In this document: piece by piece, positions 1 through 37,216 of the stretch
How positions within the stretch are numbered: the stretch's first letter is position 1
Layout of the letters: each line of letters opens with the position of its first letter
Assembly (NCBI GenBank): GCA_964106915.2
Contig: OZ066918.1
Strand: one strand, 5' to 3'
Source: Podarcis gaigeae
Taxonomy: Eukaryota
DNA length: 64,000 nt
Translations under genes and position numbers: made by a program
Notes under the pieces: model-generated
Seen by the model: only the letters and a program-made list of their open reading frames with translations
What the model was told of the DNA's origin: nothing
Database searches by the model: none

Positions 1-2746
1 CCCCAGCCCCGCCACCTCCACCCCCTTCTCGGTCAAGGATATTCTGAAACTGGAGCAGCAGAGTCTCGGGGACTCCCTCGAGCCGCCCTTCCCCGTCGCC
101 GCCGCCGCTGCCTCCTGCCTGCTGGGGTGCCGCAGCTTCTCCGACGGGGAGGACGACGACGAAGACGACGAGAAGCTGCCCTTCCTCAGCTCCATGGCGG
201 CGACGGGGAAGAGCGCCGCGGATGGGGGGCTTTCCCCAGGGAGCTACGTGCAGGCGGTGCTGCGGGGCACCTGCGATCCCAAGGCCCTGGCAGGAGAGGG
301 AGAACCGGTGCTGGATTCCGGAGCCGGTGAGTACCAGCGAGAGCGGGATCAGGACCCCAAAAGGGAGGCTTTATTGGGGAATCGTAGGGCCAGGCGGGCA
401 CCCAAGTCCCTCTCGGAACGCGGAGCGATTCCCAATCTTTCACATTGCCAGGATAACTAATTCCGAAAGTTTCCCCTTCTGGATCGCAGCGTGGTTGCGC
501 GTGTGTGGCTTGGAACCACCGTTTCTTCAGCCAGATGGGATGCTGAAAGTGGGACACGCGACATCCGCGTCTCCAGGAGCACGTCGGTAACGGTTCCGCG
601 CTGCTCAGAAGTGCTTGGGCACCTCCAAACCCAAGTCGCTTAGGCGGACGCCTCTTCCCTCTGCTGCAAAATATTTGTGACTCCAACTAACAAAGAATAA
701 GAGGATAAGTCCCTTGGAACTTTGAAGGACTTACTTCCGAGTAAACGTGCTTAGGCTGCTGTCCGCTCTACACGTCTCTGAGCCTAAGCCTCCCTGAACA
801 CAACGGGATTTGCCGTTGGGTAAAATGCACCGGATTGGGTGGTCACACTGCAGCCCTCTTCGTCTCGGATGTAAAATCTTGCTCAGTTAGTCCCGCTTCC
901 CCATGGCAAGTTTGCCTCGGAGTGCATCCTAATTCCCCTTACTTGAGAGCAGGTCCTGTGGACCTGGCTTACAAGAAAGCGTCCTGGGTTCAGCCGGAGA
1001 CTTAGGCAGAAAGGGAACGACACGTTTGGCCACGCCGAGCCATCCCAAAGCAGGCAAGGAACCGCTCTGAGGCCCAGCCTCGCAGCCTTGGTGGTCTGGC
1101 GGCAAGGAGAGCCGCCTTGGTGGAATGATGGTGCCGCTGGCTCCAAGCCCCCTTTAGGAAAGCACCCGGGGTGAAGTGGAGCGGAGTGGGGCGGTCAAAG
1201 CGGGAGGGGATCTAGTTGGGGACCCTTCGCGCCAAGGTTTTGTCCGAGGCGCGGCTAGCAAAGCTCTTGCTTGCGCTGTGTCAGTCAGTAACGGGCCTGG
1301 CCTGGCTTCCCTCCCTCCCTGGAAGGGAGAGGATCGTGTTCGCACTGCGGGATCTTTGGGGGCATAAAGACTACCGTCTGCTTCCTAAATGGGCATAAAT
1401 CCATTTCCCAAGTCCTTGCTTCCTTCCGGCTGCCGTAAGCAGTCCTGGTGGCACAGGGGGAAAACACACACACTTCGCTCCCTCAAGTTTTTCTCGAGTT
1501 GGCTGAGCTCCTGCAGAATGCCAGGCGGCGCTGGCTCCTTCGTTTGCAAGGCCGGGAAGCAGCGGCCATATTCCGTTGCGGAAGACTCAACTTTCTATAT
1601 AATAATATTAATACTATTGCTATTAAAAATACTTTGCAAACCGTGTTTCTAATTTGCTCCGCCTTTAGAATTACAGGCGCGCTTTTCTGCTGCAGGCTTA
1701 TTTTGCGGAGGAATAGTTTTGGGGTTCTCGCAGCTGTGTCTTTATGCCCTTTAAGGCTGCGGTTATACCTTAACCTGGGCGTAAGCCCCATTGAACAGAG
1801 CGGGACACTTCTGGGTTAGCCTACCTAGGAGTGCCCTGTAAGACACCGACGGAATTATCTTGTGACCTAGCAGTCGGTGCATTAAAAAAGAAAACGAAAA
1901 CAGATGTCGGCCCTTCCAGGTGCCCGCGCAGCGTGTTCTCTCCTCTCCCTTTAAATAATGTATTAATTTGTCTTGAGAAATGCGTAAATGAGAGGTTTCT
2001 GCAAGGTGATAAGGGGCGTGGGGGATGTCAATGTGTTGTACGGATCCCTTGTACCACGAGCGAGCGCAGCACGCAGCTCCCCGGTTCTTGACTGGAACAT
2101 CTCTCTCTGTTCCCGGTCTTCTGCAGGGAAGGAGTCCACGGAGGAGTCGTCCGAGCGGCCCAAGGCGCGCGGCCGGAGGAAGCCTCGGGTGCTCTTCTCG
2201 CAAGCGCAGGTCTTCGAGCTGGAGCGGCGCTTCCAGCAGCAGCGCTACCTGTCGGCCCCCGAGCGCGAGTTGCTGGCCAGCAGCCTCAAGCTCACGTCCA
2301 CGCAGGTGAAGATCTGGTTCCAGAACCGACGCTACAAGTGCAAGCGGCAGCGGCAGGACAAGGCCCTGGACCTGGGCGGCCCGACGGCGGGGATGCCTCC
2401 GCCGTCGCAGCAGCCTCCGCCTCCGCCGCGCAGGGTGGCCGTGCCCGTGCTGGTGAGGGACGGCAAGCCCTGCCTGGGCGGCTCGCAGGCCTACAGCGCG
2501 CCCTACAACGCCGCCGCCGCCGCCTATCCTTATAATGGCTTCCCCAACTACGCCTACGGCGGTTCCCCCGCGGCTGCTTACGGGGCCGGCTACGGCTGCA
2601 GCTACCCGGCGGCCAACAGCGGGGGCCCGTCGGTGCCGCCGCCTGCGGGGCCCTACATGAACATGGGCGGCTTCGCGGGCGGCGCGCAGCCCTTGCACCA
2701 GGGTCCCGCGGGGCCTTCCTGTAGTCAGGGCATCCGAGCTTGGTAG
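1..2746 (+). CDS. NKX2-3: NK2 homeobox protein Nkx-2.3 (5'-partial; 2 coding exons)
   Basis: Exon 1 <1..326 (frame from base 2 reads [20 protein letters not shown] = TN/eh1 domain; donor GTGAGT at 327). Exon 2 2127..2746 (acceptor CTGCAG) has the homeodomain [20 protein letters not shown]...[13 protein letters not shown] with Tyr54, the NK2-[17 protein letters not shown] and C-terminal GIRAW*. F at HD14 and linkage to SLC25A28 favour NKX2-3 over NKX2-5/2-6. The start ATG lies just upstream of the window. Confidence 0.95.
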
Positions 2747-3282
2747 CCCCGGCCGACGGAGAGATCGAGCAGCGAGCGCGGTTCAGAGCCACGAGCCCAG
2801 TCCCCGGTCGCTGGCTGGGGCCCGGCGAGGCAGGCGGGCAGCCGGAGAAGCGGCGCTTCCTCGGACGGGGAGACCCGACCACGCAAGAAGGTGCGCCGCG
2901 CTAGCACAGGGAGCGGCTCCATCCTCCACCCTCAGCACCTTGCCAGCCGACAGCCAGCCGTGCTGCAGTCCACGGTGCTAAACGGCGGCACTGGCTCTGC
3001 TGGACACTCTTCCCATTTAGACTCTCTTCCCTCACTCCCGGCGGAGTGGCCGCAGCCAAAGCTCTCCTGGGGAAAGGGGCGCGGCGGGAGACTCCGCGCC
3101 AAGCCCGAGCAGGGACGGGAACGGGGGGAGGCCAGGCTCTGCCAGAAAGCAGCTTCGCTTGTACAAAGCCAAAGCCGGGGTGGAGGCCGCCGCGAGCCAC
3201 CCCTTTTTGTTGTTGTTGTTGTTGTTGTTGTATCTTAAAAGTGTATCGATGTAGCCACCGCTGCAAGGAAGTTAAACGATCC

Positions 3283-3288
3283 AATAAA
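3283..3288 (+). terminator. Candidate NKX2-3 polyadenylation signal
   Basis: AATAAA about 540 nt after the stop, downstream of a (TTG)n tract at ~3206-3231. Confidence 0.6.
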
Positions 3289-3789
3289 CCAGGTGCAATA
3301 TCCATCGCAGGCTTCGCGCTGGCGGGGCGGGAAAGACAGGCGAACGAGCGAGCGAGCGAGATATGGGTTCCTCCTCTGGCATAAGCGTCCCTTCCAGGTA
3401 GAGCTCCTCTCCTGTTGCGCAGGTTCTAAACAAACCACGCTGCGCACCTAAAACGCGCAAGTGTTGCAGGAAAAGTCGAAGCCACAGAGCCGCTTTGCCA
3501 TCATAGACGGCTGTCTCTGAAGCTTCTCCCTCCTTCCTCCTCTCTTCCTTCGACGGCACCCATTTCCCCCTGCGGTGCAACAGAGTCCACCTCAGATCCA
3601 TGCAGCTTCTAACTGTGGGACAGTTATTCCTCCTAACCCAGCAGCCGAGGTAGATTCATGCCGCCTCCAGCAATCTGGAGGCACGGAAAGTGTGTGTGGG
3701 GGGTGTAATCCGGACTATCTTAATCCGGAGTCAGTTCCTCCGGAGGGCAGGCAAGCCCAAAGGAAACCCGCCCTGTCAGGACCCGGAGC

Positions 3790-5200
3790 TGCTTCAAGTA
3801 GCTCGAAGGCCGCGAGGGCTGCGGAGCGTGCGGCTCTCCAGACGCGGCTGGACTACAACTCCGAGCACGATGGGAGTTGGAGTCCTGCAACCTCCGTAGC
3901 CCGCAGGCTCCCGGTTCCTGAAGGGAGAAGGTAGGCCCGTTAGCCCGTCGACGGGCGTTGGAAGGGTCGCCCAAGGTCCCCCCTCCGCCTCCCTGCCGCG
4001 CCAGGCCTCAAGCACCTCCGTGGCCTCGGCTCTCCTAGCATTTGGAGGCGCGGCGAGACGGCGGGCTGCGCGGCCGGGTACCTGCCCGCGGCCGGAGGTG
4101 CCTCCTTCCCTCGGGCCTTTAATAGGTGGCCAGCCGGCCGCTGTAATCCCCTTGTCCCGGGCGGGGAGAGGGTGCCAAGGGGCTGAATAGGGCAGCGCGC
4201 GGCGCGGAGAGGCCCATTGTGGCGGCCGGGCCGGCTCTGAAAGGAAGCGCCTGGAAGGGGCCGAGAAGCGGCGCTTATTGGATTGGGGGACAAAAGGCGG
4301 GCCGAGGGGGGCTCCGGACAAAGGGCGAGATTGACGGCCCGCGCTGCCTCCCCCGCTGCGCCCGGGAGGGCAGGGGAGCTGCGGTTTTGTTCCCCTTTTT
4401 TATCCCGGGGGGCGAGCGGGGGATTAGGAGGCGCAGTTCAATGTCGGATCCGCCCCCGCCCTGAGTCGGGGTCGAGGAAGGTGGGGAAGCGGGGCAGAAG
4501 CAGACAGAGAGTGTATATCCCCCCCCCCCCCAGTAAAGGAAAAGCGCTGCTGTGTGACTCAGGGCTGACGTGAAGAAATGTGCCTGGGTTACTTAGTGGT
4601 TGGGAAAAGGTACTCTGCACATGCTTGAAAGACGCCTCGCCGTCAGTTGTGCTTTGGCCACGCCCCTCCGCGATGCCCTCGAGATAGATGGGGTAGCCTT
4701 CGCCAAAGGCACCGCCGAGGACCTCCCCTCTCGGTCTGCCTGAGCTGGCGACCCAGCTCACTGGGACGGGCAAGGCACGTGGGGCGTGTGTGTCCGCCCA
4801 TTCCTTGCTTCAAAGCAGGGTTGTCTTTTCCCACGTGAACAGGGGTGCCACATTGAATAAAGTCTGGGGAGGGAGTAAGCCCCGCCCCGCATAACCGATC
4901 ACATGATGTGGTGCACGCACACATTTGAATGGCAATGCCCATCCATTGGGGGAGGGAGCCTCCTCAAGTATTTTAGGGGGGGCGAAGACCCCCTCGGCCT
5001 CTAGGAGTTGGCTCCTATGCACATGAATGGCCGCGAAGAGGTTTCTTACTGCTTAGAATAGCCGGACGCAACTGCTGCGCAAAGGGGAGCTGCTTCCAAC
5101 CTGCGCGAGCTGGGGCGCCTTGCCCCGCAAGAGACCCTGCGGACTGTAGCCCCGGCGGAGACCGCGAACGAACGGCAGCCGCCGGAGGTGAGCCCTTGGC
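3790..5200. promoter_or_regulatory. GC/CpG-rich island downstream of NKX2-3 (putative enhancer/Polycomb domain)
   Basis: High CpG density with no credible coding exon; CpG density drops abruptly after ~5.3 kb. Confidence 0.5.
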
Positions 5201-5949
5201 GGTTAAAATGGTCTGGAACAAGAGCCTAGCGCCGAAGGTGTCAGGTTAGCCAGAGGAGGCGGCTCCATTAAGGGTCAATGGGGCGCTGCCTCCACACTTG
5301 CAACCGGTCCAGAGCGTACAGGTTTGTGTTTTTTTTTTTTGCTTCGGTTCTGTCTACTGTCTGGGCTTCCTGCTTGCTTCCCTGCCTGTTGTAGATGGGC
5401 ACCACCACCCGCCCGCCACTGAATTAGTTGGCCAGGGAGACAGAATGAAAAAAGTACAGTAAGTTTTGTGAACATGGAAGAAACCACCAGGGGGCGCACC
5501 CAAATAGACCTCCCGGATACTGTACCAGCAGTTTGCTTAATGCTGCCCACAATATTAACCGAAGGAATGAGGGGGCTGGGCGGGGGGAGCCATATAATCA
5601 CAGAGTTGAAAGGGATCCTGAGGTAAAAAGTCCAATGGGTAAAAAGAAATTGCATTTGCTGCCCACCAGAGGGAAAACTTTTAGGGATCTGCTTATCACT
5701 CTGTTGGTGGTGGGGTTAATGTAGGAATCGCTTTGCCTCCTTTCTTTAGGTCTTGGCGATCCTGAGGAAGTTGGGGTGATGGGAAAAGAGGCAGTTGTCA
5801 CTCCCATAACCCTGAATCACAGTCTGAGTGTGCTGTGAGGCAGTTGGCAAATGACACACATCCCTTTGACCAGATTTTAAACCTCTGTGATGCAATTGAT
5901 CAGTGCCTCTGGCTATTAACCAGAAGTTGGTGGTTCCAGCCAACCCAGG

Positions 5950-9200: not shown

Positions 9201-12200
9201 TCACTTCCCGGCCAATCGTTCCTCCTTTCGCTTGGTAAGGAAGTATTTGAAGAACTCATACACAGACCAGGCAATGGCTGTGGAGGGCATCTGGTAAATG
9301 ACACGTGCTTGTACCCCTCGAAAATAGGCAGTCAGCCCACCCACGCGGTACACCGTCCTGAATGCATGAGCCATGCCTGTAATGTGCCCACTGATGTTGG
9401 TATTCAGTGCCAGGGCCTCCTGGGTATTCAGCAGTGTCTTGCAAACGTCCAATGGGGTGGTGGCAGCAGCAGCAATGGCCCCTGCACAGGCCCCTGCCAC
9501 CATATGGGAACTAGGGTTGTACTGTCTGTGAGGATTGAGGTGTTCCTGCAAAGATTCATATGCCATGAAGTGGATGGCCTGGAAGGGGATGTTCATAGTC
9601 AGCTGAGTGGTGTAGCTTCGGTAGAAAGCTCCTGCCCCTTCATTGCACCATACAGCACGTACACAGTCTGTTGCTCGCTGGTATGGAGAGTTGTACATCT
9701 GCATTCTCTGCTTTACCACTGATCAAAAGATGACAGCAGCAGCCCAGCCATGGAGACGAGAGAAGGGCAGGGAGGAGCAAAGAAAAAATGTATAAGTGCA
9801 GTGATCTGAACAGTGTGCATTCTACGTAAACACTTTAATAGATTCAGGGGCCCTGCATCCCTCAAACTTGCCTCAGTGTGATCTATCTACCCACCCAAGA
9901 AATCCTGCAGAACTCCACAACTTGTGAAAAAACAGTAATGCCCCAATTCTGGAATTGTGAGACACCAAGTAAAACGGGGGTTACTGAAATGTGATCTGAT
10001 TATGCCTACACAATGTAGGGAACACAAATTATGAAAGACAAGTTGCAATATTGTTTTTATGTCATTTTTCAACACCAAGAGCAAGGGCAGATACACAAAT
10101 ACCTTCTTTGCTTCAGCCAAAGTCTTGTCCACCACCCACCCGCTGCATCCAAAGAACCCTTGTAGCAGGTAAGGCTGCATGTCTGAACTGTATCACAAGC
10201 AACATGAAAGCACCCCCTGGTGACAAGAAGGGAGCAGCACAAGCTGCATGAAAGTTGCAGGACTGCTGGGAAGCAACATTACCTTCTGCTGGGTTCATGG
10301 CTGCATCATGAAGCAATGTTGCCACACAGCCTGCTGCGCCTGCAAAACAAGGACTATTACATGTGAAAAGTGGGAAGAAGACATAAGGAGTTCTCACAAT
10401 GTGCCACCGGAGGAGTGTATGCGAGCAAATAGGGACACCCCCCTCCCCAAGAGAGAATGAAAGTTCATTGAGAAGTTAGCATCAGTTTTCAGAAAGGGAA
10501 TATCAGAAATATTCAAGGCTTCAGTGCAGGCAATATTTATCATATTAATCTCGACCCACATTGGAAGGATTGAGGGGGGGATCAGAAGACTAAGACTGCA
10601 ATCCTAACTCCACTTACCTGGGAGTAAGTCCACTGAATTAAATAGGACTTACTTCTGAGTAAACATGGTTAGGATTGCACTGTAAATTATCTATCATCTT
10701 TAATTCCTAGAGCAGAGAAGAGCCAAGACCGTCTTGCAGCTATTTAGGATTCTTGCAGCTATTTAGGATTCTTCCACCATCCTGCTAACACATCCAACAA
10801 GTTTCAGTCAGGCGAGTTAGTTCCAAAATTCTAGGATCTCCAGCTAATTGGGTCTTCCTATTATCTGTCCAGACTATCAGAGATGAAGGAGCCTCAGAAG
10901 CATGCTAGTGTGAAAAAGTAAATATAAGCAGACCAGACTCTACAACACGTTACAGCAAGCTTGGGGTTCTCCCCACTCAAAAATGAGGATGCTAAAAGGA
11001 CAAATGTAAGAGCACTATATAAAGTCAAAATGAAATACAAACAGCAGCACACCCATTCTTCTATCATATTTCAAACTATCTTCACAATACAGAAAGTTTG
11101 TCTGCTCTGGTGGAAACTGCAGCTATCTGCCCCATATTCCCACAATCCCTTCTCATTCACAAATTCCTTTCAAAAGTCAATGGGAAATCCTACATTCCTA
11201 ATTATCATGGTTAGATAATGCTTGGAGTGAAGCAGAACACAGCATCAGGGAAGAATGTCAATAGTAAATAGGATTCAGAAGTTAGCAATATAACAGCAGT
11301 AAGAAAGAAGACAGGAGTGCCTGGCGTGCTCTGGTCCATGGGGTCACGGACACGACTAAACAAGAAGAAGAAGAAGAAAAAACCAGGCATCCAGTTCTTC
11401 ATTTCACTAACAGTCCTAGCTGGGAACATAGGGACCCTCAGGGTGGGGCAAGCAGGCAAGAAGGGACAATACCGTTGGCCACGTGACTATTGCCCCCAGC
11501 ATGGATAATGTCGGTAAGTGTCTTTTTCAACTTTTCGTAGCAGGCGAAATACAAGGCATGAGCAGGGCCTGCCCCTGTGGCTGTGATGTTCAATCCACGC
11601 ATGGGTCGCCAGATCCCTTCAGTCCGCACGATCCGCCACAGGGCCTCCAGCACATTCCGGTAGCGAGCAGCAGGTTCCGGTTGCAGGCTCTGCATCCTTG
11701 TCTGCCAGTGCAGGGAGGGGAGCAGGTTAGATATGCCAAGGGACTTAGCCTAGTAAGCTCCACACCCAGCTCTCCCAACCCAGGACACTCCTTCCTTTCA
11801 GAGCCATTCAGCTGCATTTGATGGCTGCACACAAATGAGTTCTCGCAGGCGACCTTTGTAGGTGTCTGCAGATCACCAGAGGGCCCTCGCGTCTGCCAGG
11901 ACTCTACCGTATGTACAACCCCCCCCACACACACCTTACCCCTTTCTCTCAACCCCATGACTGAGACCAAATATTTCTGGGAACCAGGTCGGTCGCTTTG
12001 GCGGCAAAAGTGAAGGCCTGAAACGTGATCAAGGAAACCGATCTTGCTTCTTGACAACTAGCGGCGGCAACACATAACTCTCCTGTCAAGTGATCGTTCG
12101 TTGGCACTTCTGCCATTAGCCAGCAAAAGAGCCGAGAACGTGTTTGATCCATCCCTCCCCGAAGTCGTTAGCTCCATCGCATTCATCGGGGAACACATCC

Positions 12201-12721
12201 TTCGCCTTTCTGTCAACTCTGGTCCCCCCCCCCCTTTTTGCTAAATTCGGATCTAGTCGGACCGTCCGGTGATGCGGATTAAAGTGCAACACTAATGAAG
12301 ATCGTGTGCCGGTTAACCCCTCTCAGGTCCTGCCCAGGGACTCCCGCGTCTCGTCTCAGCTCCCCGCCCCCCCCGACTCCCGCCAGCACCCGCCCTGCGC
12401 CCGGAGACGCCAGAGCAGCTCGGCGCCCGTGCTCACCTTGACACAGTCCACCGGGTACATGAGGCTGTGCTCCAGCACCCCCGCCACAGCCCCTGCGAGC
12501 ATGTGGGTGGAGGCGGCGGAGCCCCGCGGGAGGGCCTCGTAGTCCGGCTCCGGGCCGGCCTCCGTGTCCGTGCCAGTCCCTCCCGCCCCGCCATCCCCCG
12601 CGGGCCACGCCCAACCCGCCCCTCCACCGTCGCCCCCGCCCAGCAGCAGGAGGAGCTGGCGGCCCGGCTCTGCCCCGCCGCGCTGCCCGGGCCCCGCCGA
12701 GCCGCCCGCCCCGAGCTCCAT
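9201..12721 (-). CDS. SLC25A28: Mitoferrin-2, mitochondrial iron carrier (362 aa, 4 exons)
   Basis: complement(join 12437..12721, 11473..11701, 10283..10339, 9201..9718); all introns GT-AG; 1089 nt in frame. MELGAGG...PDYEALP...[23 protein letters not shown]|[17 protein letters not shown]...EERLAGK*, with three PxDxxK-type carrier motifs. Confidence 0.97.
10596..10682. repeat. ~90-bp imperfect hairpin interspersed repeat (MITE-like), best copy
   Basis: ctgcaatcctaa...acttacctgggagtaagtcc...ggacttacttctgagt...ttaggattgcac. Related copies at ~705-760, 14848-14920, 24925-25015, 28855-28940, 58058-58155 and 60117-60202. Confidence 0.7.
10732..10773. repeat. 19-bp tandem duplication
   Basis: (tcttgcagctatttaggat)x2 followed by tctt. 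Confidence 0.9.
11306..11378 (+). mobile_element. Sauria SINE / Bov-B-type 3' end
   Basis: gacaggagtgcctggcgtgctctggtccatggggtcacggacacgactaaac plus an (AAG)n tail resembles the Bov-B/Sauria SINE 3' terminus. Confidence 0.7.
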
Positions 12722-18165: not shown

Positions 18166-18206
<41 letters not shown>

Positions 18207-22531: not shown

Positions 22532-22575
<44 letters not shown>

Positions 22576-25500
22576 ATATCACCATCATCTTAGGGAGTTT
22601 GGCAAAGGGTGAAGGGAGAGAGGGGGGAACGTAGGTAGTGAGGCAGCACTGTGCAGGATCTGGGGGCTTAGCTAGCTGTTAAACCAGCTTAACTTGCTGT
22701 TGGCGGTGCCTGTCCCTTGGGGTTGTTCCCTCCCCTCAAACTTCACAGGGTGCTACTCAAGTCCTGTACCTTCAAGGAACCCAACACTGCTTTTGATTCT
22801 CTTTCTTCCCCCACCCCCAATTTCCCAGGAGTCTATTCTTGGATAGGCATCAACTTTGTATTGGGAAGATTTGACCACGAAGAAGGTGAGACCGGGAAAG
22901 GGACAGTGGAGTTGAATGGGTAGGTAGAAGTTTTCTCTTTTGGCTCAGTTCCCTCTTGAGGGAGGGAATCTTCAGCACAGTTTGCTCGATTCCCAGCAGG
23001 AATGGAGATTTGGTTTTCCCACATGACCTGAACTAAGGCACCTTCCCATTCTGCAGTTTAGCAGGAGTGAAGGTGAGCAAGAGAGACTAGAGCGGATCCC
23101 CACTTCTTCCCTAACTTCTGCCCCCGCCCCCCCAAACCCTAGACATTTCTAGTGTTCAGCCCAAGAGGTATGGGGATGTGCCATCTTCCATCTCCATCTT
23201 CCATTGCTTTGGAAACTCTCTCTTTCTCTTTCTCTTTCTCTCTCTCCCTCTGGGATTGTAGAGGAAGATGCAGTGATTTCTGTGACCCTGGCTGGCCAGG
23301 AAGAAACCCTGGTGCGAAAGAGGACTGTTGGGATCCTTGACATGGGAGGTGCCTCTCTGCAAATCGCCTATGAGGTGCCGACTTCCACGTCCTTCTCTTC
23401 CCCGCAGGAGGTGTGTAGTTTGGGAGGGAAATATGTGCTATGGTCCAGGTTGGGCACTGTTTCTTACTCCCTCTCTCCCTCCCCTCTGCTACCGACAGGA
23501 GGAAGCTGCCAAGAGCCTGCTTGCTGATTTCAACCTTGGCTGTGACATGCAACACACGAAGCACGTGTACCGAGTCTACGTCAGCACCTTCCTGGGCTTT
23601 GGGGGCAACTACGCCCGGCAGCGCTATGAAGAGCTGGTGCTGAATCAGACCACCACCCGCAACAGGTGATGTCCTCATGCTGCCAGGTTTCAAAAGGTCT
23701 GGCTAAAGGCAGCTCTGGATTCCACTGCCCCCAGGAGTTCAAGGTGTGGCATCCTGGGAGAGGGTGTGTGTTTATTTGTAGGAGGCAGGCTCCCTGAGTG
23801 ATGAGATCAATGGGAGAAGTTTTTGATGGTCCGTATGCATACCTCTAGCCTGTTTCGGGGTGGCACAGAAGAACTCACTGATCATAACTTGCCGCTGGGG
23901 ATGTCTGTGTTTTCCCAACCCTGAAGCTTAGGCTCTCGTTGCAGGTTGAAGGGTGAGCAGCTTGGCGCAAATGCTGGGGTGCCCGTCTTGGACCCCTGCC
24001 TGCCTGTGGGACTGGAGGATGTTGTGGAGCATGGCGGCCAGACCCTGCACATCAAGGGCCAGGGAGACTGGCAGTTGTGCGCGAAGCAAGTGCACCTCCT
24101 GCTGGCGGGAGACAACAGAACCACGGTGTCTCTGCGCAACACCTATCAGGCACCAATTGACTTTGTTAACAGCGAATTCTATGGGTTCTCTGAATTCTAC
24201 TACTGCACCGAAGATGTGCTGCGCCTGGGAGGACTGTACCACATGCCCACGTTCACACGCGCTGCCCAGGTGACTCTAGAATATGTGATCACTTTGCCAG
24301 GATAGGGGGTATTGTTTCTGTGCCCACTCATGTCTTTTGCCTCCTTCCAGGATTTTTGCAGCCTGAGCTGGTCCTTATTGATCCAGAGGTTCCGAGACCA
24401 CCTATACTCAGCACATGCAGATCTGCACCGTGTCAAGTAAGAATCCATTCTTCCTTTTCACAGAGAATGTGCTTGGTCCTTAGCTCTTCTTCCATGGACG
24501 GTGAAGGGGTGGGGGTAAGATTGCCCCCCAGCAGTTTTCTCAACTGATGAGCCTCAGTCCAGCGTATTTGTGATGGAGTCTCTATGCTCTGCTTGCAGGT
24601 ACCAGTGCTTCAAATCAGCATGGATGCACCAAGTCCTACACGAAGGCTTTCATTTCCCCAAGGATTATTCTGGTCTGCGCACAGCCCAGTTGGTGTATGA
24701 TCGTGAGGTACAATGGACACTGGGAGCCATTCTCTATAAAACTCGTTTTCTGCCACTCAGGTAACCTAAATTGCTGCCCACTACATGTTTTCTCATCTTA
24801 AGAGTGGTAGAGTTCTTTTGGTTACTTCAGAATCAGTCTTTCAAACAAGGTCTTCAGTAAAGAACTGGACCATGGCACTTGACTAGGAGTAAAATGCCGG
24901 TTTTCTAGCCCTAATTAGAGTGTTCAGTCATCTTAATATGTGAACTTGGGAGTAAGCCTCACAGAGTTCAACATGAGGAGGGCTTACTCTCAATAAGCAT
25001 GCATAGGATTGAGCTTGAAACATGGAGGAGTTCAGTACTCTGTGTTTAGTTTGAAGTTGCTTTTTTTGAACTTGAGAAAGCAAGTGATCCTGCCAGCAGT
25101 GCTTTTCTGAAAGAAAAAAAAACAGAAAAGGAGAAAGCAAAGGCATGCAGAGACCTGGTTTGTTTTTAAGAGGTACCTAAGGGAGAGACATCAAAAGCAC
25201 CCTCAATGAAGCACAGAGCCTGCGTGAAAAGGAAGGATCCTTTATCAGTAGGCAACATGGTGTCTTAAACCATTAAACTAAACCTATGTTTTCGACATCT
25301 CTCATCTATTTACAAATGGTCTGTAGGGCATAGGCCTGAGAAAAGCCAGGTATTTGGGAATGATACTTACTGCAGTATCTGGAATGCTTCTTTGTCTGCT
25401 AGTTGCAAGAGATTCAAGCTTAGCGCAGCTTCACATTTTAACTTCAGACTGATTTTTCTTTGTTTTTCAGGGATCTCCGCCAGGAGAGCATCCACCAACC

Positions 25501-25699
25501 TCGCAGCCCTTGGCTCCGTCTCTCCTTTGTTTATAACCACTACCTTTTCTTTGTGTGCATTCTTGTGGTGATGCTTGCAATTGGACTCTACCTCTTCCGT
25601 CTGCGCCGCATCCACCAGAAGCAGTTGCACGTGGCACAGCTGGACCTGCTGTGGCTAGCAGAAGTGGTCCCGCTGCCAGCACAGGAGGCAGCCTCCTGA
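13980..25699 (+). CDS. ENTPD7: Ectonucleoside triphosphate diphosphohydrolase 7 (LALP1; 607 aa, 12 coding exons)
   Basis: join 13980..13987, 15243..15422, 20411..20616, 20743..20893, 22236..22339, 22829..22885, 23262..23410, 23499..23665, 23945..24269, 24351..24436, 24599..24760, 25471..25699 = 1824 nt in frame, all GT-AG. Starts MARISFSCLCPASWHF; apyrase conserved regions DCGSSGSR, CTAGMRLL, ISGKQEG, DMGGASLQ, WTLG; N- and C-terminal TM segments. The 5'UTR part of exon 2 starts at 13886. Confidence 0.97.
15553..16900. mobile_element. Non-autonomous Tc1/mariner-superfamily (Tc2/pogo-like) element, 1348 bp
   Basis: TA|CCGTATTTTCCCCTCTATAACACGCA ... TGCGTGTTATCGAGCGAAAAATACGG|TA terminal inverted repeats with TA target duplication; no transposase ORF; internal ~90-120-bp triplication at ~16420-16770. 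Confidence 0.85.
17130..17330. mobile_element. hAT-like MITE fragments (ggactacaactcccatc family)
   Basis: Internal palindrome ccagatgttgttggactacaa / gatgatgggaactgtagttc. Related copies at ~3850-3890, 6575-6690, 27660-27785, 40815-40930, 41665-41705 and 51445-51585. Confidence 0.55.
18170..18204. repeat. (GT)n microsatellite
   Basis: About 17 GT units preceded by a (CT) tract. Confidence 0.95.
18300..19110 (-). mobile_element. Degenerate LINE ORF2 3' fragment (family uncertain)
   Basis: AT-rich block; minus strand has a decayed HFLRC zinc-knuckle-like remnant (~18662-18682) and an A/C-rich tail region. No intact ORF. Confidence 0.3.
21031..21583 (+). mobile_element. Probable solo LTR (~550 bp) in ENTPD7 intron
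   Basis: Starts TGTAGCAG and ends CTGCTAC(T) (short inverted termini); TATA box CTATAAAAG at 21180 followed by a pyrimidine-rich tract and AATAAA at 21355. TSD not resolvable because an L2 tail abuts the 3' end. Confidence 0.55.
21584..21872 (-). mobile_element. L2 LINE 3' fragment
   Basis: Tail (ACT/AAT)n, then tttctacccgcccatctggctggg...aaggccctc...ctggacctcagtgtccgg, typical of squamate L2 3' ends. Confidence 0.6.
22400..22578 (+). mobile_element. L2-like LINE 3' end with (TAAA)n tail
   Basis: ttgttagctgccctgagcccggcc...gggcggggtat followed by about 11 TAAA units. Confidence 0.6.
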
Positions 25700-26944
25700 G
25701 AAAAGAACTACCTCTCAGCGAACTCTCTCCACTGCCCTATTGGCAGTGGCTTTTAATGGGCCAGAAGCTGTGATTCTCTTGCGGGCTAGTCCAGAATTCT
25801 GCAGGACTCCAGCCCAACCCCAGGGCCTAAACAGTGTCTGCTCAGACTTGCCCCTAACCCAAGCCGCTCAACCCTAATGGACTCTAGATTTTCCTCCGTG
25901 GCTGAAATCCCCAGCCACTGTGGGAGAATCACGCTGCAGGCGCTGTGAGGCAAGGGAAGCTGATCTGTGTTACCCTTGACAGTGGGCAAAAGGCAGCATA
26001 GCTGAAAGTGACCAAAGAAACTTGATTTACTCAGGAAGGGGAGGGAGAAGGACATTGTGTGGCCAGGAACTGGACAGCTCTCCCGCAAAAGGAAAGAAAA
26101 TGGTTCTTTCTGGTGCTTTACTATGAGCACGCCCCCCCCTACTTCTGTTGATGTCTATGATAGGACCAAAAAAGGAGTCGTGCAAACAGGATTCCTTGAG
26201 GGTAAGAAATAACCTTTTTAAAAAATCAAGGCAGATATTTTGCTGCCTTCCTTCACACTCCTCCCCACAAATACATTTTGCACACACTCCTTTCAAATCC
26301 CACATTTACCCATCATTCAGTGTGTCTCAGTGCTGTTGTCCCAGCACTGGGGCTTCCAGCAGTTCCAAGTTTCACAGAAGACCACCTTGAACTGTGGAAC
26401 GCTGTCTCTGGTACTTGTTTTAACAACAACTAGCCCATAAACTCAATCAACTATGGGCTAAGTTAAATTATGAATTTGTTTTCATACTTGAACTCCAGTT
26501 ACTGTAGCAATAAATTATGCTGAACTGTGTAAGCAGAGTTTCTTGATGCTAGTTGTGCTGGAAGCTTGTTGGTTGGTGTAGCTGGTTGGTTTTACTAGCT
26601 GTAAAAACCATGATTTCTCACCTGTGCTCAAGAATGAGAACCAATCTACAATTGTAGGCCAAAGGAAAAGAACTTGCTTTATTGCTGTATGGTCCTGAAC
26701 ACAATAGGGTTACTATCATAAATCCTAGTCTGGAAATTTGCAGTGGCTTAGTTGCTTACACCACCTGGATAGTTTACTGAAGTGCTCCTTGTCAGGAAAC
26801 ACAGACCACTTTTGATTTCCCCCAATACCAATTAGATGCTATGGATAGAGGCTGGAGTATTACCCTGGCTGAATTTCAAGCACTTCTGGGCCCCATATCA
26901 GATGCCTTTAACAAAAGACAAAGAAAGCTCACATACTAAAAAAA

Positions 26945-27451
26945 TTTATTTTCACGATAACAGTTTACACTCAATAAATACAAATACACAACATTATAAA
27001 TAATAGTGGAAGGGGGAATTCTAGGCAAATGCATCCTAGTGCAGCAGCCTCACTGCTAATGGACAACGATAGGGAGAGAACAGATCTATTGGGTGAGCAT
27101 CACCATGTAAATGTAAGGAAGGTGTCTTGTATCTTGCCCAAGAGGGTGTTCCAGAGCTCCATCAGCAATTATTCAATCTTAGCGTTCATTACAGGACTTT
27201 CAAAATGCAAACATTTTCCCTAACTGCCACAAGAGGGACATTTCGTTACAACATCAAACCCAAGAGCAGATGCCACCAAGATGCATCAGTTAAAACAAGT
27301 GGGAGATGGTTAAACAAGTGAAATGGTCCCTTCATATGTTTGGGTCTTGGCTCTACTGCTGTGGGGAAATTTAGAGTGCAAACAAAAGATCCGTTGAGTT
27401 AGTACTGGAAAGGACAAGGGGTGGAGCTGTTATCTAGCATCAGAAGGAAGC
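26945..27451 (-). other. ATP6V0E2: ATP6V0E2 terminal non-coding exon (3' UTR) with polyA signal
   Basis: Acceptor ctttttctctttttcctAG (plus-strand 27452-27470); AATAAA on - at 26945-26950; upstream donor CAG|GTACTT with the exon ending at 27943. Confidence 0.7.
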
Positions 27452-27970
27452 CTAGGAAAAAGAGAAAAAGATTTCTTAGTATAGACCTTACCCCAGCAGG
27501 ATAGAAGATATCTGGGAACAATCAACCTGTTGCCCTTTCAGTGAGATTTACCATAGCTACCTTTTACATACAATGAGAAAGTGACCTGTCCTATAGAACC
27601 ACAGAGTGGCAACACTATTGGAGACAGATTACAGGTACCTTTCTGGTTCTATTGGTTAAGCCAGGGATGGGACCTGTGATTCCAATGTGGCTTGACTAGG
27701 ATCCCTGACTGGCTATACTGGCTTGGGCTAATAGGAGTCAGAATCCAATAATATCTAGAGAACCATAAGTTCCCCATCCCTGGGCTATGCCATTGACAGG
27801 TGAGTCGGGTAAGGAACCCAGGATGGGAATCTTTGTAAACTGGAAGCAAGCAGATTCCTTGTTCTTACAAGCTATTAATGAGTTGCATCTAATGTATTTG
27901 TGTTAGTAAGGTAGGTTAGGTAGCGCTGGATAGAGAAAGTACCTGTTGAATTGGTTGATAGTGGTGCAGT

Positions 27971-29709
27971 TCACTCCCACAGGAAGCGCACATACCAGAT
28001 GGTCTCATTCTTCAGCTGGGGTCCAAACAGTGGGTTGGCCTGGGCCAGGAGTGCTATAAGCCAGCTGCAAGGGAAAGATAGGAAGGAGACATATAAACTG
28101 GATCACAACTCCTGCACTAGTGCTGAAATACAAAAAGTCATATTTTGCAAGTAACTGCTAGGTCATTTTTGCAAGTAACGGTTATTCTTATAAAGAGGAC
28201 AGTGTCACTGTAGGAGGGATATACAATCTAGGGAGCAAGGTCTTCTAGTTCTTTAAATGTACTACAAGGAGATAAGATCTGCCCTGGTGCATTATGCCCG
28301 AGTGTGTGTAGCTTAGCATAACAGCTGAGTCAGACAGGATGTTAGGGCAGCTAGAACAGTCTAGTGCTTTGGTGTATGACCAGAGATGGTCTAAGGTTTG
28401 TTATGGGATGCAAAATCCACTCCTTGTTCATATATGGGGTCCTGGGAGCATCATGCATGAATGATGCTAGGACATATTGGAAGAGACAGTGTACCATGAT
28501 CCAAGATTACCCAAAAGCTTATTTTATGAAAGAGAGGCAGGCTGTTTATGCACCTATGTGTAGAATAAGGACCTGGCAACTGTGAAGCAACTTGAGCATC
28601 TCCAAGGTGGTGTATACAGGAGAACTTCTTCTATTTGGGATTCCTTCCTAGATTCCCAATATTCATGAAGCAGCCACTTAGATAAAGTTATGAGGGTGGT
28701 TGGTTTCCTGCTGGGTACAACCCAGCCCTACACCCACAACCCATCTCCCCTATGCAATACTCACAAGAGATAGCAGGAAATGGCTGTAGTCACCAACATG
28801 GTAATAATTACTCTGTGAAGTGAAAAAATGAAAAAGAAAAAAGACTGAGTAAAGCTGCAAGCCTAACCCTACTTACCTGAGAGTAAACCCCACTGAATAT
28901 ATTAGGAATTACTTCTGAGTAGCCATGGATAGGATTGTGCTGTTACTGAAACAGTCAAGCAGGTCACACAGGAGAAAGGATTCCCAGATCAGGCACTCCT
29001 CAACGCTCTTTCTCCCTGCTCCCACACCCGGACCCCTATATACCATGTTCATAAGAGAAAAATACCCTAGCCCAGCCCTTTGGCTGCTATACTAGTTTGC
29101 TATTTGCAGGGTCGCTGGTGTTTCCAACGCGAGGTAGCACTCATAAATGTGATTCGCCCCCACTTGGCAGTCTGAAGCGATGCAAAGTCCCCTGTTCACA
29201 GCATCCGTGGATCAGGCCTCCTTCAAGGCCAAAGGCGGCTGCGGAGAAGGAAAGCCTGCGAGTGTCGCACTTGCGGGGGAAGCGGGTGCTGGTCCCTGCT
29301 AAAGATTTTGTGTGTGTCATGTCATCTCCCAATATATCAATATCTCTATATAGTGATCTTTTTGGATATATAGGTCATTCTCACATATCTATCTATCATC
29401 TATCTATCTATCTATCTATCTGTAAATCAATCTGTCAATCAATCATCTATCTAGATATAGATATTCTCAAAGCCTTTAGCAGGGACCACCATCACCCTTC
29501 CCTCGCAATTATAGATCACAATGCATATATTGATCTATTTGGCGATGACCGAGAGACCTGGCGACGGATCGGGCGGGCGGAGGCTGCGCGGGCGGGGAGC
29601 CTCACCCGCGGTTGGGCCCCTTGGGCACGAGCCACGGCCCGGCGATTCCCACGAGCCCCCAGAAGACGGAGAAGAGGATGATCGGCAGCGCGAAGCTGTG
29701 CGCCGTCAT
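27971..29709 (-). CDS. ATP6V0E2: V-type proton ATPase subunit e2 (81 aa, 3 coding exons); absent from the ORF track
   Basis: complement(join 29606..29709, 28765..28812, 27971..28064) = 246 nt, GT-AG introns: [35 protein letters not shown]|[16 protein letters not shown]|[31 protein letters not shown]-terminal MTAHSFALP and C-terminal YVRFLWE are the e2 rather than e1 signatures. Has its own CpG island at 29.5-30.0 kb. Confidence 0.95.
29386..29455. repeat. (TATC)n/(TCAA)n microsatellite
   Basis: Imperfect tetranucleotide run in ATP6V0E2 intron 1. Confidence 0.85.
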
Positions 29710-30030
29710 AGCGAGGCAGGTTGGGAGCGACTGACGGGATGAAGGACAAGAAGCCGCCGCCGCCGAGACCGCAAGAAGAGTGAGTCTCCGCTCCTCCCCC
29801 TGTCTCTTCCTTCGCTTCTGGTCCGGTCCGCAACCAATCAGAACTCCGTGCGCGCCCCCCGGTGTTTTTCCCCCTTCGCCACCCCGTATTTTGGAGCCTC
29901 GGTTCCGAATGGAGCTGCCTGTGTCATACCGCCCCCTGCTGCCTCGGAGGGTGTATTGCGAGGAGCGGAGAAGGCAGGTCGAATCTTACTAGAGCTGTTG
30001 CAGGCATGGGCATCGTATAGGCGTCCACTG
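29710..30030 (-). promoter_or_regulatory. ATP6V0E2 CpG-island promoter/5'UTR
   Basis: CpG-rich; CCAAT at 29834; GC-box-like motifs directly upstream of the ATG. Confidence 0.65.
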
Positions 30031-31370: not shown

Positions 31371-31376
31371 TTTATT
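31371..31376 (-). terminator. Candidate COX15 polyadenylation signal
   Basis: AATAAA on - about 550 nt after the stop; a second one at ~31098. Confidence 0.55.
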
Positions 31377-31925
31377 AAATAAGGAAAGGATTGTGGGTCT
31401 TCTGCATGGTTAAATTACAGTGCACATTTCAATATTCTAATGCAAACAATTGCACTCAAAAAATTGCACTCAAACCCCATTCTGCTAAAGAAAATCCACA
31501 AACTATGCCACCCATCACCCTTATAATAGTTTTGAAATGCCTTCATTTGCTGTTCATCCAAATTTCTAGGCCCACTCACCCCATAATCCGTTGTCTATAT
31601 CATGCCTACACAGAATGTAAAAGGCTCATGGCTTTAGCCTCATACAGACAGCTCAGCAGGAAGCGAGACACACCTCAAATGACCATCATTCTTGCCAGAG
31701 CCCACCTTGTCAACATCACACCTTAAGCAAAGCATGGTGATTCATGTTCACCAAGTTTTGCAACAAATCAGTTGAACTCATGACGTCAAGGTGCTGCTCA
31801 GCCTCGCCTTCTGTTCAAATTAAGGCTTTCAGGAAGAGGAGCATACAACACGTGGGGCAAAGGCAGCAACAGCAACCGTGAACCTTCAGCACTAGCAAAG
31901 AGGCTGGCTAAATAGAGAAGCAGCG

Positions 31926-32440
31926 TTATTTTGGGATCCGCTTCAGTTCATGCATCAGCCACAACGCCACACTGAGCAATACCAAGGAACCTGATTGATG
32001 AGTGGCTGCTAAAGGAGTTGGGACATACAGGAGAAGTGTGCTGATGCCCAGGGTAACCTGCAGAGAAGCAAGAATAAAATGAAGTTTCAGATGTAAGCAA
32101 AGTTTGCTTACAAGTATACCTGAAATGTAGAAGTATGTGCAAATACATCTGCATCGTATTCTTATAGCACAGAATTATACACAAAAGCTTCATAAGCAAT
32201 TGGTATGGGGATTTTTATATGTTCTGTCTCTCCCCCACTGTAAATAACCTGCTACAGGATGAGGTAGCTGTCATAGTGCTTCATGATACAATGCTAATGA
32301 AACTGCACTGATGTTCCCCCTTTGCCTTCTCAGTTTAAACCCAGAAGCCAGAGAAGGGCAGTGACCATAGCACTGTGCAATATTTCCACAGAAGAGCACG
32401 ACTGCAGCTCTATTTCCTCCCTTTGTTCTTCAAAGCCAAA

Positions 32441-32475
<35 letters not shown>

Positions 32476-35400
32476 ATATTGGTCCCCACCAATTTTAGTT
32501 TTAAATACCTGAGACCAGCAACCAAGATAGCATTATCAGTGACAAGAAGGCAGGCACCTACCTGGAAGGAAGGAGAAACTTGCCATTCCATTAGAGGACA
32601 CTACTGAGTGACAACTAAAAGGGTGTTTTAAAGGGCATAGTTAATACCTGGAGGTATGCCACAGCCAGTAAGGAAGCAACTGCCATCCTTGTCCTCCGTG
32701 GGAGAGGAATCCTCCGGGAAAACAGGTACAGACCTGTAATGGCTGTGACAGAGGAAACTCCCTAAAGGGAAAAGAGTAAATATCAGTGAGGGAACCAGAG
32801 AAGCTTTGCAATGACAACAAAGGGTTTAGAAGTGGAGTTGGAAGGGATCTTAAAAGGTCATTGCAGGAACCTCACTACTACAGCATCCCTGACCATCCAG
32901 CCTCTGAAAAAGAGTCCATCACTTCTGGGGCGGTCTGCTCCTCTTTCAAACAACTCATATCATCATTATGTACTCCTTAATGTTTAGACTAACCCCCCCC
33001 CCTTTTGTAACTTGCACCCTTTAATTAGAGACAGTGGAGATGGAAACCAGTACTTTAGGCATGTAAGCAAGTGCTCTACTCTGAGTTAAGAGTGTGCCTT
33101 CCCACACTCCCAGTTACACTGCCACCTGGAATGAACACAAACCCAAGAACAGCAAACCAATTAAAAAGAGGTGTTATCTAAGAGCATAAAGAGGAAGAAA
33201 CATACCAGAATCCTGTGATCAAACTGCACAGTTGTGGGATTCTCAAATATGTTCTTCAACTTTGGGGAAAAGGCAAGGAGATCATCAGGGATCCAGCGTT
33301 CCCCCATCTTGGGAAATGAATTGTATACAAGACCAGCATCCAGTCCTGCCACAAATGCCCCTAGAGTTCCAGAGAAGAGAGTCTGTCACACCTGGAAGTA
33401 TGAATGTAATAGAACAAGCCACCTAAAAACCATCACGGTGGGTGTTTCAGGTTCTTCCCTCAAGGCCACAAAACAGTTCCCAGTGATGTTGTCTGACCAG
33501 CATGAAGAGGAAGCATTTCAGTAACCTGGAATTGAAAACGTCTAGACCCTCCCAATGGGAAATCAAGCAAGAAACACACATCCCTGACCATGCTGCCTAT
33601 TGCTTCTCAAAAGAAAGAGATTGGTGCAAAAGTGACAGGGACTTTTACCTGAGAGGGCAGTGAGAAAGATCAGGCCTGATGTTCCATGAGCAAACCTTCT
33701 GAGGCGCAGGAGTTGACGGGTTTCTGGTAACTGTCAAAACAGGAGGAGGATCACAAGAATATGCAATGGCCTTTTTATATATTCTAAAGGGAGTATGTGC
33801 AAAGGAAACTAGTGTTCCATAGGGTCAGCATATATACACATTTCCAATAAGACTCCTGACTGAAGAGGAACTTATTTATTTCTCTCTCAATGGCTGCATG
33901 GCCCTTAATGGACATGGCTTACATCCAATTATATCTATGAACCCAAATCTACCAAATTTTATAGACATCACCAGGCGTTCTTGGAAGCAGTCAGATAGCA
34001 TCTGCATGCTTGATTTAATCCTGCTGTCAAGTCACCATACCCAGGACCAGATCCACAGGCCCCAGAAGCATCTACTGCCTGGATGTGTAGGGCAAAAGTG
34101 CATGGCTCCCTCTATGCATGGGAGTGTCAGTGCTAACAGAGTTCTTGACTGGTAAGCTTTGGTGGTGTTTCCAGGAACGTTATCTCTTTGACATTTCCCA
34201 AGATTTGTAATTTTCCTCTTCTAGGCTGATCACATATAGCATACAGTGGCAGTTTGGTCTGCACAGTGGCAGTGTGCCTCCCTCCAAAGGTGCAATTGGT
34301 GTACAGGCTTTCTTGGCCCAACTGGGACTCCATACATGCCCCCGGTCTGCCTCACTCTTCGCTTACCTTGTGCTGCGGCAGCAGTAATGAGAGTCCAGTC
34401 CACAGGCTGTAGCAGTAAAGAACAAGCGCAGAGCCCAGGTGTGCGGCTAGACGGTACTGACTGACCCGTGGGATATCATGAGAGTCTGGCTTTTCCTCTA
34501 ATCCACTTTTTACCATATACCATCCCAATAGGCCCTGCCAAAACAAAGAAAAAGTACCATAGAGGCATGAAACTAAGACCACTTTTGCTCCTGCCAATAT
34601 CATGTACATTCTCTTCCAAGGAACTAAGATCTAACAACACTCCAAGCTCCATGATCTGAAGCTTCTGCTGGGCTTCTGTGCAGCAGAGACCTAAGATCAC
34701 ATACAAATCAGCTCCTGAAGCGTGCAAAGGATCAATGCCTTTCATGTTCTATCTCAGTTATCTTGGGCAGAGTAATTTAATGATTCATTTAACAATTTCA
34801 AGGTCCCAGTGATCTTTCCTACCTGGAAGCAGACAAGTCCACAGAGGGCAACGACACGACCCTTCAGGGACCGGTTGAGGTAACCCTTCCTCCAGAAGTA
34901 AGCTGCTGGAAGGATGTAAGCCAGTCCAACAAGCCGTCCCCACATTCGGTGTGAATACTCCATGTACCAGATGAATTTGAACTCTGTCAGCGTCATGTTG
35001 TGGTTCAGGCTGTTAAGATTCAGAGAGAAGGTTTATAAAACAACAACAAACCCTGCAGTAAGGTGTAGTTGCCCATTCCCCTCTTTCCTTGAGAAGTTCT
35101 ATCAAGAAGTAGCATTCAAGATACTCTTTTTTTCTCATTTCCCTTTTGCTGGGATAGTAGACTAGGCTTCCCCCACCACCACCAATTTAAATTTAGTCTC
35201 TAGGAACTTTGTTCAACCCATGCCTACATTTTAAATTCTGGGAATTGCTGGTAGTTTTGGAATTCTGCTTCCCACTCCTGCTGTGTCCGAGGAGGCTTCA
35301 TCTCCCGCACGAGATGCCAGTCAACCATTGAAAGCCCAGACTCTGTCAGCCTGAAAAGGAAAGAACAGCAATGACATACCACTGAGGGAAGGTGCTATCA

Positions 35401-37216
35401 ATGTGGCATATAATGGTGTGTGCATGTGTATCCATCTATCTAGAAAAGCAGAATGAAGACACAATGGGAAAATTTAGACACTGGGGGCAATGCAGATGCA
35501 AAGTCTGACTACACACAAAACATACCGGTCATCAATTCGATGCAAATATATATTGTTTACAATGCATTTATAAATTAAGGGTAAACACAGGCATTCAAAG
35601 GGCAGAGAGATACCAGAAGTTAGTTTAGGCCCACACACTGGTATGACCAAGAGGAAGCAATGCACCTAGGAAGATCTCTGCTGGTTGCAGAAAGATACAA
35701 TCTATGACAGTTGGAGAACCATAGTGTCAAGGGTAAATAAAATATAGTAAAGGCTTGAAGAGGAGGTGCTAATTTTCCTTACCTAGTGACTCCACCCAAC
35801 ACCACAGCTCCGGCCACAGTCCCACTGCATATTAGAAGCCAGCGCCCTACAGCCCGGTTGGTCACAGCACTGGGGACAGGTGGTACCACCACTCTGGGAT
35901 GGGAAGCAACTTCTGACACTACGCTGTGTTGTGACCGTCTCTGTGGGAGCTGCCACCACCGTTGGCATTGCTGAGGACAGAGAAGGTAGTGAGGAGCCTG
36001 TTTATAATTATGCCACCCCACTAAACATACATTTGCAATTCAAGATATGGAAGAGGAGAATTACTCAAGATGAATGAACTCTCTTTACTGTAAAGAGTTC
36101 ACACCTGTGTTCACTACATCAGAAAGGTTGTATTCAGTGCCAGACATTATTCTACAAAATGCAAGGACAAGGATAAAGGACCAGATCATCAATGATGCAA
36201 GCACAGAAAAACTGGACAACAGGAATTCACTGAGATGCTCAGCAAAACTTATTTTTATTTTCAATATGTTCATATGTGTCCTGCTTGTGGAATATGCAGA
36301 AGCATTTGGCTGGCCACCATTAGCAGGTTTTCATATGTTATTAAAACGCTGAAAGCATATGGAGGGGAAAGTGTTCATGTTTTTACAGGGCCTGTGTCCA
36401 TGTAATAAAATGTGATATATTCATAACTGTTATTTTATTTGTTTAAAACATGTATACACTACTCCTCATCTAGGTGGGACCAGAGTAGTTCATGGTATAG
36501 AACCTTAAAAAAAATATCCTATGAAACATTATACCTCTTGTTAAAGTTATATATAAAGAGAGAGAAAGCCTGCAACTTACACATTTAACTGGTGCACATT
36601 TAGCTATACACGCTTGGCAATTAAAAAAATAATTAAAAAGAGACCAAGCGTCCAAGGAAAAAGACTTTGACAATCCCAACTGCCATTGAACCTAATGTGT
36701 TTTGACTATCTGTGAATTATGATTTCGGCATGATTCCCAGAATGTAACTTGTAGGTATACAAGTGAAATATTTTGGCAGTCACCGAAACTCCTAGAGAAA
36801 CAAGTTTTCAGTCTGCTCCCTTTAACGTGTCTGCTTGTGACAGGTGTAGACAATAGAGTCTGTAGTTTTCTTGAATATCCACCCATAATTAGAGTTCCCC
36901 ACGTGGAAATGAGGTAGCATTGATTAGCACCTCCCACAGTGCAAAGGATACATAAAGGCGGAAACTCCTGGCATTTTCCCCAGCAGCGTCTCTTAGCGAG
37001 CGTGATAGCAGGTACGCAGCCTGCTCGCAAGCCTAAGAAACGAGGAGCCGCGGGGGGTCGCTTCGTTTTGCAACCATCGGCCGATAGAGGCATCTTTGGC
37101 CCGGTCCCCGTTGCTATGGAAACCAAGCGCCGCCCCTGGAGTACCTGGCCGGGGGACCCCGTTCCTCGTGGGGCCAGCAGCAGCCGGGACCCTCTTAGTG
37201 CCGCCCGCAAGAGCAT
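31926..37216 (-). CDS. COX15: Heme A synthase COX15 (406 aa, 9 exons)
   Basis: complement(join 37145..37216, 35783..35970, 35228..35350, 34823..35009, 34367..34534, 33649..33730, 33206..33360, 32648..32761, 31926..32057) = 1221 nt in frame. Motifs [41 protein letters not shown]; Arg/Leu-rich mitochondrial presequence. Confidence 0.96.

Follow-up and report, generated by a model that had tools for sequence, protein, structure and literature searches.

The closest described system to the locus examined here is the NK4 block of vertebrates. A recent paper (Nat Commun 2025, PMC12019251) names slc25a28/37, entpd4/7, bnip1, crebrf/rfl and atp6v0e1/2 as neighbours of the NK4 genes in the legend of its Fig. 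1A, and infers a single ancestral locus before the first duplication (pre-1R), with atp6v0e1/2 among its families. According to its table, NKX2-3, SLC25A28, ENTPD7 and ATP6V0E2 adjoin on chicken chromosome 6 and Xenopus chromosome 7; on gar LG5 and zebra shark chromosome 20 the same four genes are joined by nkx3.3 and crebrfl, in the order ATP6V0E2, CREBRF-like, ENTPD7, SLC25A28, NKX3-3, NKX2-3. NKX2-3, NKX2-5 and NKX2-6 have also been treated as one ohnologue family, on human 4p, 5q, 8p and 10q (PMC2446394; Lamb 2021, PMC8040251). Here we describe the corresponding locus of a lizard, Podarcis gaigeae, in a stretch of 64,000 nucleotides from contig OZ066918.1 (the window), with a focus on ATP6V0E2 (e2), its paralogue ATP6V0E1 (e1) and the different position that e2 occupies in mammals.

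In the window, NKX2-3(+), SLC25A28(-), ENTPD7(+) and ATP6V0E2(-), then COX15 and CUTC, stand in the conserved order and strand of the published block (PMC12019251). From the NKX2-3 start codon to that of e2 the distance is 29.7 kb, and exon fitting to splice edges gave open spliced frames with GT..AG introns in all four genes, bearing out an earlier note on this DNA that had placed them within 30 kb. NKX2-3, an NK4-family homeobox gene (1-2746, + strand; 317 residues), has its ATG 8 nt before the first base of the window, with exon 1 extending to 326 and exon 2 at 2127-2746. SLC25A28, encoding mitoferrin-2 (9201-12721, - strand), comprises four coding exons for 362 residues, the last exon being 99% identical to squamate mitoferrin-2, and ENTPD7 (13980-25699, + strand) comprises 12 coding exons for 607 residues. 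Families were assigned by Pfam (Homeodomain, Mito_carr, GDA1_CD39, ATP_synt_H, COX15-CtaA and CutC, respectively, for the three genes above, e2, COX15 and CUTC), while the names NKX2-3 and ENTPD7, as against those of their paralogues, are based on published gene order and on the presence of separate NKX2-5-type and ENTPD4-type loci elsewhere in the lizard genome. We are confident, if short of certain, that the window is the NKX2-3 copy of the vertebrate NK4 block with e2 at the site it holds in zebra shark, gar, frog and chicken, that e1 and e2 likely stem from an early vertebrate whole-genome duplication, and that mammalian e2 likely moved as DNA with its introns.

The e2 gene lies on the - strand. 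The coding part of exon 1 (29606-29709, 104 nt) sits within the gene's own CpG island (29100-30000, observed/expected ratio 0.89), followed by exon 2 (28765-28812, 48 nt) and exon 3 (27943-28064), of which 94 nt are coding (27971-28064, stop codon at 27971-27973). A non-coding last exon (26945-27451), with splice sites read from the DNA, is predicted further downstream and carries AATAAA at 26945-26950. The frame is intact, the introns are of the GT..AG type, and e1 has the same layout of coding exons; the gene measures 2.8 kb in the lizard and 1.4 kb in chicken (PMC12019251). Matches of the two short e2 exons to ATP_synt_H reach 24.3 and 21.7 bits, below the whole-protein cut-off of 25 bits. 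When compared with the PDB, exon 1 reaches 62.6 bits with solved e2 chains versus 39.7 bits with human e1, and exon 3 reaches 58.7 versus 49.5 bits. The spliced product of 81 residues is identical to the RefSeq e2 proteins of Podarcis muralis and Lacerta agilis. Furthermore, in a midpoint-rooted tree of 46 rows and 81 columns, chosen from the matches to cover the main lineages and built without invertebrate or cyclostome rows, an e1 side and an e2 side separate at 100/99, with the window gene on the e2 side, where a Pleurodeles row labelled ‘hypothetical protein’ also groups. By these comparisons the window gene is the e2 orthologue and not e1. Both sides of the tree contain sharks or rays, ray-finned fish and tetrapods, so the e1/e2 split is older than the divergence of sharks and bony fish; no named lancelet, tunicate or cyclostome ATP6V0E stood among the best 120 of 201 matches.

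Mammals carry e2 elsewhere. The table of PMC12019251 shows e2 gone from the block in this group, which is not discussed in the passages of that paper examined. Mammalian e2 adjoins SSPO, ZNF862 and LRRC61, as three fused gene models place it directly after a ZNF862-type gene, with the arrangements SSPO-KRAB-e2-LRRC61 in a vole and SSPO-KRAB/hAT-e2 in Scotinomys. In chimpanzee, e2 and SLC25A28 lie on different contigs (160.4 Mb versus 129.8 Mb), and in dasyurids linkage is already absent, with e2 on contigs of at most 316.8 Mb versus 684.6-690.4 Mb for SLC25A28. The accessions of echidna e2 (XP_038611507) and ATG9B (XP_038611400, taken from PMC10936676) differ by 107, those of echidna e2 and ATG9A by about 12,000; in the lizard, the contig with SSPO also holds one of the two ATG9 genes, by its position probably ATG9B, at a distance of 1.9 Mb from LRRC61. 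The echidna copy is thus apparently in the mammalian neighbourhood, which suggests that e2 moved in stem mammals, before the divergence of monotremes. The earlier note had assigned the move, introns included, to the human lineage; the introns hold up, whereas the dasyurid and echidna records make an earlier date likely.

Evidence for the introns comes from 25 longer or variant e2 records, mostly mammalian, among which two mammalian ones (macaque and pangolin) have extra sequence inserted after residue 35, and seven from primates depart from e2 at residue 50-51. In lizard e1 and e2 the introns fall at residues 35 and 50-51, and breaks at these places indicate that e2 likely moved as DNA and not through RNA; mammalian e2 thus appears, from its protein isoforms, to keep both ancestral intron positions. 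Mammalian e2 could instead never have moved as DNA, being either a retrocopy that replaced the original or a separate ohnologue left by reciprocal loss. In favour of a retrocopy, ATP6V0E genes do form them, as two processed e1 copies in the lizard genome attest, and the mammalian intron evidence derives from isoforms rather than genomic sequence, but a retrocopy fits poorly with isoform breaks at the lizard intron positions. A hidden older paralogue, in turn, is opposed by the tree, which unites mammal e2 with the e2 of reptiles and birds at 98/92, within a tetrapod e2 clade at 97/93. We consider this pair of explanations improbable. Under a move as DNA, e2, small and self-contained, would have been copied or moved in stem mammals to the SSPO/KRAB-ZNF/LRRC61 region, with the old copy then lost.

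The landing site may itself have been rearranged. On lizard contig C24 (2.20-2.43 Mb), a C2H2 zinc-finger gene separates LRRC61(-) from SSPO(+), the latter two being arranged head-to-head, and KRAB exons lie beyond the 3' end of SSPO. In contrast, the vole fused model has SSPO, a KRAB gene, e2 and LRRC61 on one strand, with LRRC61 downstream of SSPO. Within 360 kb around lizard SSPO/LRRC61, neither e2 (human e2 query, best E 0.62) nor the ZNF862 transposase gave a match. ZNF862, a KRAB-hAT gene, is the direct neighbour of e2 in rodents, and a link between the e2 move and this captured hAT transposase can be speculated upon: e2 would have left the roughly 450-million-year-old NK4 block alone and intron-bearing, in stem mammals prior to the monotreme split, and the event that brought it to a rearranged SSPO/LRRC61 junction would also have placed the transposase there. 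We regard this fuller scenario as doubtful. If true, a housekeeping gene would have travelled on a DNA transposon, or been inserted together with one, in an event that can be dated. The name ‘ZNF862’ was not found in the main text of a preprint on transposase capture (10.1101/2020.05.07.082677).

The relationship of e1 to e2 is reflected in their surroundings. Exon searches of the lizard genome returned four exon-3 matches: a single e2, a single e1 with introns, and two processed copies of e1. The intron-bearing e1 (contig C2, 52.94-52.95 Mb, + strand; coding exons of 104/48/94 nt) lies about 70 kb from an NKX2-5-type gene; the two converge, as do e2 and NKX2-3 in the window, and CREBRF stands immediately downstream of e1. 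On a third lizard contig, ENTPD4-type(-), SLC25A37-type(+) and NKX3-1-type(-) genes repeat the order and strands seen in the window, and a stanniocalcin gene comes next. The two processed copies (C30 at 8.75 Mb and C9 at 55.79 Mb) are intronless, each with an in-frame stop, and one of them shares a contig with the window, at a distance of 4 Mb, and could be taken for a local paralogue. No second lizard e2 was found at the mammalian-type site, the remaining exon-3 matches being e1 and its two processed copies and the 360 kb around SSPO/LRRC61 having no e2 match.

In the lizard and in published coordinates alike, the e1- and e2-bearing blocks both carry other paralogous families in matching order. 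The sister blocks of the window are ATP6V0E1-CREBRF-BNIP1-NKX2-5 and ENTPD4-SLC25A37-NKX3-1-NKX2-6, and a genome duplication would be the cause of the e1/e2 split. This agrees with the proposal of the earlier note that e1 and e2 are whole-genome-duplication ohnologues, which we find likely given a split that predates sharks and blocks with matching paralogous families. A local or segmental duplication could have had the same outcome, since a two-member family alone cannot demonstrate a genome-wide event, and the ohnologue supplements searched (PMC8040251, PMC13489949, PMC10927551, PMC9974502 and PMC4504502) hold no ATP6V0E row, although tables that use ids instead of names, or files beyond those searched, may list the pair. 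However, the duplicated unit carries CREBRF, NK4, stanniocalcin, mitoferrin and ENTPD genes in matching order and strand, the blocks are on chromosomes assigned to one paralogon in Lamb 2021 (PMC8040251), and the split is older than the divergence of sharks and bony fish. A local or segmental origin has little to commend it, slightly less than the retrocopy or older paralogue considered above.

One member of the third block, NKX2-6, may have been lost in this lizard. Chicken, frog and human carry NKX2-6 in the place corresponding to C28:3,154,500-3,230,000, but the 49 kb of gap-free sequence that separate NKX3-1 (3.153 Mb) from the stanniocalcin gene (3.204-3.216 Mb) on that contig gave no NKX2-6 homeobox match (best E 0.21), and none was among the top eight NK2 matches genome-wide. 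Separately, C17 at 82.35 Mb holds a divergent NK2-type homeobox of the NHRYKMK class, distinct from the four expected NK2.1/NK2.2 genes, which are on C1 and C16.

When the three blocks are merged, the pre-duplication order would have been ATP6V0E, CREBRF, ENTPD4/7, (BNIP1), mitoferrin, NK3, NK4, with the place of BNIP1 suggested by a head-to-head BNIP1/ENTPD pair in lancelet. The ancestral block sketched in the earlier note, NK2-mitoferrin-ENTPD4/7-ATP6V0E, thus had the right families and was incomplete, as it would also have held CREBRF, BNIP1 and an NK3 gene. Its tight linkage before vertebrates was not borne out. Lancelet chromosome 3 holds NK4, NK3, SLC25A28, CREBRF, ENTPD4 and BNIP1, with SLC25A28 0.6 Mb and CREBRF-ENTPD4-BNIP1 6.5 Mb from NK4 (PMC12019251); by these published coordinates the genes are linked on the same chromosome only and do not form a contiguous block.

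Outside mammals and squamates, the position of e2 was followed through a proxy, in which the e2 and SLC25A28 protein records of a species lie on equal-sized contigs, together with the closeness of their accession numbers. Such a match was found in 16 of 19 comparable species: Pristis, Hypanus, Narcine, Rhinoraja, gar, Amia ocellicauda, Huso, Acipenser sinensis, reedfish, Megalops (for one of its two mitoferrin-2 copies), Pleurodeles, two Pelobates, Rhinophrynus, Gopherus flavomarginatus and Alca. Alligator, Engystomops, Lepidochelys and several birds and teleosts were left out of the 19, their records coming from different assemblies or being pooled over species. The two accessions are at most 10 numbers apart in gar (XP_006630494/495), Huso, A. 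oxyrinchus, A. sinensis, Amia calva, Atractosteus, reedfish, Pleurodeles, Pelobates cultripes and Gopherus; six further species show distances of 48 to 590. In gar, e2 and slc25a28 are only 36 kb apart (PMC12019251), which supports the use of accession numbers.

Additional linkage comes from CREBRF-like genes. Two A. sinensis gene models join e2 to a CREBRF paralogue, and in sterlet the two are on one contig with consecutive accessions. In a tree, the paralogue forms a clade with the gar copies at 100/100, which lungfish joins more weakly (90/86), separate from true CREBRF. This family (P0248-P0258) is kept in ray-finned fish and lungfish and is absent from the lizard genome; a further protein, P0254, branches off outside both clades.

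These records, together with the shark, gar, frog and chicken coordinates, support the site in the window as the ancestral gnathostome site of e2, as the earlier note had proposed; non-squamate outgroups with e2 in a human-type neighbourhood were looked for and not found. An insertion of e2 in squamates, with the mammalian SSPO/ZNF862 site ancestral, would explain why mammals carry e2 elsewhere and why the human and mouse rows of the PMC12019251 table are without ATP6V0E2 at the locus, but is rejected, with hardly any probability left to it, on the coordinates of chicken, Xenopus, gar and zebra shark (PMC12019251), the 16 outgroup matches and the lack of an e2 match around lizard SSPO/LRRC61.

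Several points weigh against our reading of the window, of the duplication and of the move. Equal-sized contigs signify the same chromosome only, and close accession numbers merely stand in for position. Three of the 19 comparable species (conger, eel and paddlefish) mismatch; these have further genome duplications, and the mitoferrin recorded for them may be the other duplicate copy. Thorny skate e2 is missing from the table of PMC12019251, although four other rays and skates match by equal-sized contigs. As to the duplication, the tree places the e1/e2 split before crown jawed vertebrates and not in a given duplication round, and ATP6V0E is unlisted in the lancelet rows of PMC12019251, where CREBRF-ENTPD-BNIP1 are 6.5 Mb from NK4. 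As to the move, the mammalian intron positions are deduced from protein isoforms, and the echidna placement is drawn from one accession distance, with no echidna SLC25A28 record seen.

The lizard window lacks two genes present at the NKX2-3 copy in fishes, NKX3-3 and CREBRF-like. No NK3 coding remnant above chance was found in the window (best E 0.39), including 3700-5300, and no CREBRF-like remnant above chance either, including the 1.2-kb gap between the ENTPD7 stop codon and the e2 polyadenylation signal (25700-26944), where gar and zebra shark carry the crebrf-like gene; the best CREBRF query, at E 0.04, fell in the wrong gap. Chicken is also without both genes here (table of PMC12019251), so their absence marks the amniote form of the block and not non-membership of the NKX2-3 paralogon copy. 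CREBRF-like was probably lost in tetrapods and NKX3-3 in amniotes, and these losses (the former from the tetrapods checked) would have given rise to the compact four-gene run of the window. A CpG island at 3700-5300, 3' of NKX2-3 (GC content 0.64, observed/expected 0.77), in which no coding gene was found, falls within the interval that nkx3-3 occupies in frog, gar and shark; it is possibly a left-over regulatory element. On its 5' side, e2 is flanked by COX15 (31926-37216, - strand; nine coding exons, 406 residues), whose start codon is at position 37216 and which forms a head-to-head pair on one shared CpG island with CUTC (37260-45440, + strand), for which the spliced model did not close. 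Beyond CUTC lies the 5' part of an ABCC-type transporter gene (51700-64000), which we take to be ABCC2, with a run of N at 53552-53766.

The NKX2-3 paralogon with ATP6V0E2 being already published, the main value of this locus is confirmation of that block in a lizard and about a dozen further species, with the likely move of e2 to another chromosome in early mammals as a modest addition; in the literature searched, this relocation was not found in print, and subscription journals or supplements may hold it. In human, ATP6V0E1 and ATP6V0E2 are likely sister genes from a genome duplication, their kinship obscured by the later move of e2, and lists of ohnologues compiled from gene order in mammals would be prone to overlook them. 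A move in stem mammals, if that date is right, could serve as a marker for chromosome change by single intron-bearing genes, and as a natural test of whether e2 expression changed on leaving the NKX2-3 neighbourhood.

Relative to known systems, the lizard protein is an ordinary 81-residue e subunit of the V-ATPase V0 sector, sharing with the solved V0 subunit e2 (PDB 6vq6_e and 6xbw_e; Pfam PF05493) its length, two hydrophobic segments and the C-terminal RFLWE, and differing by ordinary substitutions alone; the contrast to mammals is one of genomic position. The window shares genes, order and strands with the NK4 block of chicken chromosome 6 and Xenopus chromosome 7, and sister blocks around NKX2-5 and NKX2-6/NKX3-1 with the same source (PMC12019251), whose table is without squamate, turtle, marsupial or monotreme and whose main text has atp6v0e once, in a figure legend. 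The NK and Lbx-Tlx paralogons of PMC2446394 and PMC8040251 include no ATP6V0E, SLC25A28 or ENTPD7 in the text searched. A mammalian translocation out of the NK paralogon has been described for Lbx2-Tlx2 (PMC2446394), which involved a multi-gene block, whereas e2 appears to have departed alone.

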